From Escherichia coli (lineage in GTDB: Bacteria; Pseudomonadota; Gammaproteobacteria; Enterobacterales; Enterobacteriaceae), in assembly GCF_003334355.1 (NCBI RefSeq), contig NZ_QOWP01000039.1: a stretch of DNA of 30,913 nt; one strand, given 5' to 3'. Under the pieces are notes generated by a model. It saw only the letters and a program-made list of their open reading frames with translations, had not been told where the DNA came from and did not search any database. The first letter of the stretch is position 1; the number at the start of each line of letters is the position of its first letter. Shown here piece by piece: positions 13,536 through 13,693 of this stretch. Made by a program: the position numbers and the translations under genes.

Positions 13536-13619
13536 TCAGTTCAGAAGCTGAAGCAGAAAGCGGATCAGTTCCAGCAGCGCAATTAACGCCCCTAGAACGA
13601 TGATTGCTTTATCAATCAC
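13536..13619 (-). CDS. dinQ: DinQ type I toxin peptide (27-aa form; nested longer in-frame starts up to 13685)
   Basis: Minus-strand translation from GTG 13619 gives (M)IDKAIIVLGALIALLELIRFLLQLLN*, a single-transmembrane peptide I recognise as DinQ. The same frame stays open upstream to ATG 13685 (49 aa), with further in-frame ATGs at 13664 and 13652. A LexA box lies upstream and the agrB complement lies in the leader. Confidence 0.7.
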   Translation of the reverse strand: MIDKAIIVLGALIALLELIRFLLQLLN

Positions 13620-13693
13620 CCGTTTTCTCCATGCGATGGAGTGAGAATGCATCCGCTTACTCATCCACTGCCTGTCACGGCGCATGTCTCATT

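Follow-up and report, generated by a model that had tools for sequence, protein, structure and literature searches.

The minus-strand frame that encodes the small toxin DinQ in the window (the whole stretch of 30,913 nucleotides of Escherichia coli DNA analysed here, contig NZ_QOWP01000039.1) stays open upstream of the annotated gene through three ATG codons, which raises the question of which of its possible starts is used and whether the antisense RNA AgrB or the structure of the leader could choose among them. Direct reading of the ORF at 13536..13685 (−) gave a product of 49 aa, MRRDRQWMSKRMHSHSIAWRKRVIDKAIIVLGALIALLELIRFLLQLLN, with in-frame starts at ATG 13685 (49 aa), ATG 13664 (42 aa), ATG 13652 (38 aa) and GTG 13619 (27 aa). 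The original prediction of four nested starts of 49, 42, 38 and 27 aa was borne out by this reading, the fourth start being GTG 13619. The three ATGs are here termed ATG-II (13683-13685, mRNA nt 129), ATG-III (13662-13664, mRNA nt 150) and ATG-IV (13650-13652, mRNA nt 162), all on the minus strand. When the 69 nt upstream of the GTG were subjected to 20,000 dinucleotide-preserving shuffles, the frame remained open in 44% of them, at least three in-frame ATGs were present in 6%, and both properties were combined in 3.5%; an open frame with three or more ATGs is statistically marginal, being neither clearly a product of chance nor clearly selected.

Identity and annotation of the dinQ locus

The region corresponds to the gor-dinQ-agrA-agrB-arsR locus of E. 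coli K-12 MG1655, with 100% identity over 851 bp, and is identical in many other E. coli chromosomes. Assignment of the frame to dinQ was correct, as confirmed by the RefSeq annotation and by this complete identity with MG1655, and dinQ lies between gorA (12130-13482, +, RefSeq annotation) and arsR, in the position of the K-12 gene. RefSeq places the dinQ coding sequence at 13536..13619 (−), from a GTG start at 13619 (mRNA nt 195) to a TGA stop, and describes the product, a 27-aa single-pass membrane type I toxin, as ‘damage-inducible type I toxin DinQ’ (WP_001295215.1). Its sequence is that of a single hydrophobic helix (VIDKAIIVLGALIALLELIRFLLQLLN). The NCBIfam equivalog model NF041472 (toxin_DinQ, cutoff 30 bits) was matched by the 27-aa form with 54.0 bits and by the 49-aa frame with 51.8 bits; within the 49-aa frame only residues 24-45 were matched, and nothing in the 22-aa extension, taken by itself, matched the NCBIfam DinQ model.

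Published transcript numbering was transferred to the window by the relation coordinate = 13814 − N, N being the mRNA nucleotide. The +1 (G) thereby falls at 13813 (−) and the full-length dinQ transcript of 331 nt spans 13483..13813 (−), with the Shine-Dalgarno sequence (SD), the GUG and U44 on the expected bases. A terminator-like hairpin of this transcript was found in the sequence at 13489-13519 (−). At the other end, a LexA operator-like sequence, TACTGTATGATTATCCAGTT (13811..13830, −), overlaps the −10 hexamer (TATGAT) of the dinQ promoter, and a LexA operator of dinQ has been described (PMC3567139). A simple promoter scan recovered neither the dinQ nor the agr promoters; the promoter and LexA positions given here rest on reading of the sequence and on the 2013 paper (PMC3567139).

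Some RefSeq genomes carry, antisense to the dinQ leader and promoter, an annotated 57-aa ‘hypothetical protein’ (WP_001297979.1) that corresponds to the window ORF 13641..13820 (+), the entry itself being given as window 13647-13820 (+) and as L011:316-489 (−) in another of the loci compared. This is probably a spurious call over a structured UTR.

Leader elements and the published switch

Using SHAPE, compensatory mutants and in vitro translation, Kristiansen et al. (2016) defined a switch in the dinQ leader (PMC5066626). Four leader elements engage in mutually exclusive pairings, in which element 3 pairs either with the SD (3:4, closed) or with element 2 (2:3, open). The +1 mRNA adopts the 1:2 and 3:4 pairings, with the GGAG of the SD sequestered; removal of nt 1-43, giving the +44 mRNA, results in the 2:3 duplex and an open SD; and agrB, bound to the +44 mRNA, occupies element 2 so that 3:4 re-forms and the SD is closed, the sRNA-mRNA duplex being cleaved by RNase III (PMC5066626).

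All of these parts were located on the minus strand of the window. U44, at which the processed and translationally active +44 mRNA (dinQ-b) begins, maps to 13770 (PMC3567139; PMC5066626), and the agrB antisense target, G88-A119, which includes element 2 (G94-G106), maps to 13695..13726, where it matches the 5′ end of agrB at 31 of 32 positions and that of agrA at 25 of 32. The agrB-complementary element had been claimed at 13694-13726, 5′ of the longest start, and is therefore right to within 1 nt; it ends 9 nt upstream of ATG 13685. SL4 of the 5′ UTR (A129-U167, 13647..13685; mapped from PMC5066626) contains ATG-II, ATG-III and ATG-IV, and is followed by element 3 (U167-U178, 13636..13647; PMC5066626) with the anti-SD CUCC, by the SD GGAG (G184-G187, 13627..13630), which is supported by its anti-SD duplex energy and by homologues and lies 7 nt upstream of the GTG, and by the GUG start itself (mRNA nt 195-197, 13617-13619). 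The leader in the window thus holds both halves of the switch, an SD sequestered by an upstream anti-SD and an alternative pairing of that anti-SD with the antisense-target region.

In the SL4 fold, ATG-II (nt 129-131) pairs with the CAU at nt 165-167, and ATG-IV (nt 162-164) has its A bulged while its U and G pair with G133 and C132. ATG-II and ATG-IV are located on opposite arms of one RNA stem (5′-AUGCG...UGCAU-3′) and are therefore structurally linked. ATG-III lies within a conserved segment of the SL4 loop, where AAG is present in other lineages.

Shine-Dalgarno strength and predicted accessibility

Scoring of anti-SD duplexes in the −20 to −1 window of each start gave −6.4 kcal/mol at the GUG (GGAG, 7-nt spacer) and −2.7, −3.2 and −3.1 kcal/mol at ATG-II, ATG-III and ATG-IV, respectively. 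By this scoring no SD precedes ATG-II, ATG-III or ATG-IV, and only GUG195 has one. SL4 alone folds at −9.9 kcal/mol. In RNAfold calculations the probability of the SD being unpaired was 0.08 in the +1 form, 0.22 in the +44 form and 0.02 in the +44 form with nt 88-119 blocked as a mimic of agrB, so that modelled folding reproduces the direction of the published SD switch. The modelled +125 form had a fairly open SD (0.41), at odds with its reported inertness, and this value was not relied on. ATG-II was mostly paired in every modelled form (probability unpaired, 0.03-0.23), and ATG-III and ATG-IV were partly unpaired in the folds (0.3-0.6).

Published evidence on start usage

The four nested starts are those of Figure 3C of Weel-Sneve et al. 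(2013), where they are designated DinQ II-V (PMC3567139). Each of DinQ II-V was cloned in that study and all were toxic on induction from pET28b; an 18-aa ORF I was non-toxic on induction (PMC3567139). In S30 extract the DinQ IV construct yielded a second, smaller product, which led the authors to the SD-preceded GTG (PMC3567139). Among the in vivo transcripts starting at +1, +44 and +125, translation was obtained from +44 only and gave a peptide of the size of DinQ V (27 aa), +1 and +125 being inert in S30, and DinQ was located in the inner membrane (PMC3567139). The 5′ end of the +125 transcript, dinQ-d, lies about 4 nt upstream of ATG-II (window 13685-13690, mRNA about nt 125-129; PMC3567139). 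A K4stop mutation would abolish every DinQ isoform; no start-codon mutagenesis of ATG II-IV in their native context, nor any that keeps SL4 intact, was found in the dinQ literature. Start use was shown in S30 extract by product size, and no direct in vivo survey of upstream-ATG initiation under SOS induction was found in the dinQ literature.

Initiation-site profiling, which had been put forward as a check, is published in part. A 2025 Ribo-RET study lists DinQ among the small proteins whose initiation peak at the annotated start is induced in low Mg2+, so that reads at the annotated GTG are on record, but annotated starts alone were quantified there (PMC11429745). A preprint using Onc112 (10.1101/511675) does not mention dinQ.

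Conservation of the GTG start and of the upstream frame

The relatives sampled comprised nine plasmid dinQ/dqlB loci, seven divergent E. coli chromosomal alleles and 13 loci from species-representative genomes, the last found by scanning those genomes for DNA encoding IDKAIIVLGA. A degenerate scan of the species genomes for dql was dropped, about a thousand chance matches being expected, and the plasmid matches serve as the dql sample. Every homologue collected has a start, GTG or ATG, at the position of DinQ V together with a GGAG-type SD. An SD was present upstream of this common start in 23 of 23 homologues, as GGAG in 19 of the 23 and as GGGA or CGGAG in the rest.

The upstream frame behaved differently. 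Plasmid dinQ genes have ATG at the V position and a TAA four codons upstream of it, and in Citrobacter youngae and Citrobacter sp. On2M the start is GTG, the SD is unchanged and a TGA closes the frame four codons upstream. The frames of Pantoea, Serratia and dqlB are closed 8-21 codons upstream and contain no homologous set of ATGs. Among 13 Escherichia alleles ATG-III was kept in all, ATG-II in 12 and ATG-IV in 12: in E. albertii ATG-II is replaced by ACG, with loss of the start, and in Escherichia sp. E1V33 ATG-IV is replaced by TTG. In the 23-sequence alignment, the frame relation varies from member to member of the family through indels located between SL4 and the SD hairpin. Neither a ribosome-binding signal of their own nor conservation of start and frame in orthologues, as would mark a functional alternative start, was found for ATG II-IV.

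In Serratia silvae and Serratia sp. H1w (L020:349-440 and L026) the DinQ homologue begins two codons earlier and is 29 aa long; the start reads GTG ATT GAT ATT GAT AAA... (VIDIDKAIIVL...), an apparent tandem duplication of the ID codons with the SD and spacer kept.

Constraint on the leader as RNA and on the core as protein

Unconstrained RNAalifold analysis of the MAFFT alignment recovered only the upper SL4 stem and the GGAG (element 2):CUCC (element 3) pairing. As this partial recovery is due to bulge placement that differs among distant members, the published structure was scored explicitly on the alignment. SL4 and the SD hairpin were paired in 86% of the cells of the 23-sequence alignment, and the CUCC:GGAG hairpin in 90% of the cells. 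Compensatory changes were present in six of the nine SL4 pairs. The covariation score of SL4 was 0.239, compared with 0.149 ± 0.014 in shuffles, none of 500 of which reached it, and with at most 0.097 when the pairing partners were slid. The SL4 loop UGACAGGCA was invariant across the 23 homologues.

Substitutions were counted in 15 Escherichia and Citrobacter sequences, a set that replaced an earlier codon-position comparison of eight E. coli alleles, which had been suggestive but small (5 vs 5 sites). The 84-nt core had 11 synonymous and two nonsynonymous variants, with codon position 3 accounting for eight of 12 variable sites, whereas in the 66-nt ‘extension’ one variant was synonymous and 13 were nonsynonymous, a nonsense codon and the loss of a start among them, and position 3 accounted for one of 10 sites. 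Fisher's test of core against extension gave p = 7e-5 for synonymous versus nonsynonymous changes and p = 0.011 for codon position, values that are indicative only because the sites are phylogenetically non-independent. No purifying selection on the extension as a protein was apparent, and a substitution pattern of the coding type is, as judged from these alignments, restricted to the 27-aa core.

A probable single functional start and the alternatives

Which isoform is made and which is toxic had been held to be undecidable from sequence, a view that did not stand, since SD scoring, RNA structure and sequence comparison agree on the GTG; nor was it still an open matter, having been settled experimentally in 2013 (PMC3567139). 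The proposal that antisense pairing or leader structure picks the start was right in that both control initiation, but what they form is an on/off switch on one start, with no choice among four (PMC5066626). We consider it very probable that GTG 13619 is the single functional start, that 13647-13685 is untranslated leader RNA (SL4), and that agrB and the leader gate that start without selecting among four. The locus is the dinQ/agrB type I toxin-antitoxin locus of E. coli K-12, repressed in its transcription by LexA, in which GTG 13619 would be the only start used natively and would yield the 27-aa inner-membrane toxin DinQ. The primary +1 mRNA is inert because element 2 is held by element 1, which leaves the anti-SD (element 3) available to sequester the SD (element 4); loss of nt 1-43 frees element 2 for element 3 and exposes the SD for the GTG; and pairing of agrB with nt 88-119, within which element 2 lies, re-closes the SD hairpin and forms a substrate for RNase III. 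The upstream ATGs, situated without an SD inside the covarying SL4 of a 195-nt 5′ UTR, would not serve as alternative initiation sites, and the frame would be open upstream by accident of a short sequence constrained as RNA. We infer that the ATGs persist in Escherichia through the structural constraint on SL4 together with recent common ancestry and shallow divergence.

Initiation at the upstream ATGs under some conditions, giving 38-49-aa forms of DinQ with a basic N-terminal tail and with the start set by agrB pairing or refolding of the leader, appears very unlikely to us. It would account for the open frame and for the ATGs kept in most Escherichia alleles, forms II-IV can be expressed and are toxic from a vector RBS (PMC3567139), the dinQ-d mRNA, which begins at +125, about 4 nt before ATG-II, shows that a near-leaderless transcript exists, and the folds leave ATG-III and ATG-IV partly unpaired. 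Yet none of the three ATGs has an SD, the +1 and +125 mRNAs were inert in S30 and +44 gave only the V-sized peptide (PMC3567139), and what agrB binding affects is the SD hairpin belonging to the GTG (PMC5066626); the extension, with its single synonymous change against 13 nonsynonymous ones and its nonsense and start-loss variants, is without coding-type constraint; and the frame is closed in Citrobacter and all more distant relatives, while a GTG or ATG start with an SD is universal. Slightly less probable still is a role of the ATGs as decoys or upstream regulatory sites that bind ribosomes unproductively, or as a standby site feeding the GTG, with the longer peptides being irrelevant. A standby site for dinQ was left possible by analogy with tisB (PMC5066626), and the loop invariant in all 23 homologues suggests a function beyond formation of the stem; against this, the ATGs are not conserved in the family, ATG-III alternating with AAG and the positions of II and IV covarying as stem pairs, no experimental support for such a role was found, and the published model accounts for the control of translation without invoking one (PMC5066626). 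A single start at the GTG is hence preferred over both. We would also give very little credence to low-level near-leaderless initiation at ATG-II, III or IV that dinQ-d RNA or a stress-remodelled leader might permit in Escherichia; if it took place, the resulting DinQ would be 38-49 aa long, carry a basic tail in the cytoplasm and behave differently in the membrane.

Publications of 2013 and 2016 already describe the nested starts and their toxicity, which start is used and how agrB and the leader take part, and the annotation uses the 27-aa form. What is new here is comparative support only, namely the closure of the frame in Citrobacter, Pantoea, Serratia and the plasmid copies, the synonymous/nonsynonymous contrast, and the co-variation of sRNA and target described below. 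The locus illustrates that several ATGs in a short open frame ahead of a small toxin gene can reflect nothing more than structured 5′ UTR, and that sequence alone, read for SD context and compared with a few relatives, can settle which start is used.

Comparison with dql and tisB/istR-1

The locus does not differ from dinQ/agrB of E. coli K-12 (PMC3567139; PMC5066626): it is the same locus, identical in its sequence, four starts, agrB target, SD hairpin and +44 site. The dql system (dqlA/dqlB) of Enterobacteriaceae chromosomes and conjugative plasmids resembles dinQ in its agr-like target, its SL4 with the UGACAGGCA loop, its CUCC/GGAG hairpin, its distance from SD to start and its product, a hydrophobic single-helix peptide. 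Unlike dinQ, it has an ATG start, a peptide of 27-32 aa with another core sequence, and an upstream frame that is closed 4-15 codons before the start and has no equivalent nested ATGs.

The LexA-controlled type I system tisB/istR-1 is unrelated to dinQ in sequence but is alike in being SOS-induced, in having a primary transcript that is inert until its 5′ end is processed (+42 in tisB, +44 in dinQ), and in having an antisense RNA that blocks translation from an SD-distant site and triggers cleavage by RNase III. The two differ in that tisB uses a ribosome standby site and its SD remains closed after processing, whereas in dinQ an exchange between mutually exclusive duplexes opens the SD.

The agr sRNAs and their target

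Two matches to Rfam RF02891 were found on the plus strand upstream of dinQ. The distal copy (14125..14208, 108.4 bits) is complementary to dinQ mRNA nt 88-119 at 31 of 32 positions and is therefore the antitoxin agrB; the proximal copy (13894..13977, 106.2 bits), a weaker antisense copy with 25 of 32, is agrA. As expected of a type I antitoxin, agrB is a trans-encoded antisense sRNA with extended complementarity to the leader of the toxin mRNA, and sRNA and dinQ target co-vary in 15 other loci. Among E. coli alleles the dinQ transcript varies most at the centre of the agrB target (window 13701-13708, mRNA nt 106-113), and the 5′ end of each strain's own agr sRNA carries changes that match its dinQ nt 106-113 (loci L011-L029). 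Two agr copies are present in K-12, E. coli E69 and E. whittamii, and one in O111, E. albertii, Escherichia sp. E1V33 and Citrobacter.

Other Rfam matches above the gathering score in the window were the sRNAs GadY (29493-29606, +, 150 bits) and ES205 (23643-23714, +, 105 bits) and ES036/CssrF (5075-5115, +, 42 bits), which bear no relation to the nested starts of dinQ.

A probable repeat-mediated deletion allele of dinQ

In the B2-type E. coli strains ATCC 25922 (L016:348-520) and NQ3 (L017:348-520), the sequence is homologous to K-12 dinQ only from mRNA nt 88 onwards. At precisely this point a complete AgrB-family gene starts on the opposite strand, over dinQ nt 119..88 (cf. window 13619-13726), which puts the 5′ end of the sRNA at a distance of 76 nt from the start of DinQ. 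The match of sRNA and target at 34 of 34 positions is explained by sRNA nt 1-34 and the target being the same DNA. These alleles are without the dinQ promoter, the LexA box, leader nt 1-87 and the agr promoter, and arsC, not arsR, adjoins them. The 27-aa ORF is intact in ATCC 25922 and carries L15Q in NQ3. Recombination between the direct 32-nt repeats would be expected to yield just such an allele. Coverage of the dinQ transcript query fell below 80% in about 819 of the 5,423 complete E. coli genomes, a count consistent with a common allele, and the deletion allele would appear to be carried by roughly 15% of complete E. coli genomes. No description of a repeat-mediated dinQ deletion allele was found in the dinQ literature, and this allele may be of interest for the study of type I toxin locus decay in natural populations.

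Distribution of dinQ and dqlB homologues

Homologues of dinQ/dqlB were present in 2,326 PLSDB records, mostly of IncX, IncI, IncK, IncN and IncF plasmids of Escherichia, Klebsiella and Salmonella. Several of the plasmid dinQ/dql loci (L002-L010) adjoin trbA or recombinase genes, and in the two loci tested (L002 and L004) an AgrB-family match lies upstream. The similarity of plasmid dinQ leaders to the zor 5′ UTR was noted in a 2024 paper. One further sequence, CAAFJI010000131.1 (L023), is a 1,061-nt contig labelled as a Lachnospiraceae MAG. Its dinQ leader and gene do not differ from the E. coli O111-type allele in the 119 nt compared, and almost certainly it is an Escherichia contig that was mis-binned into a Firmicutes MAG.
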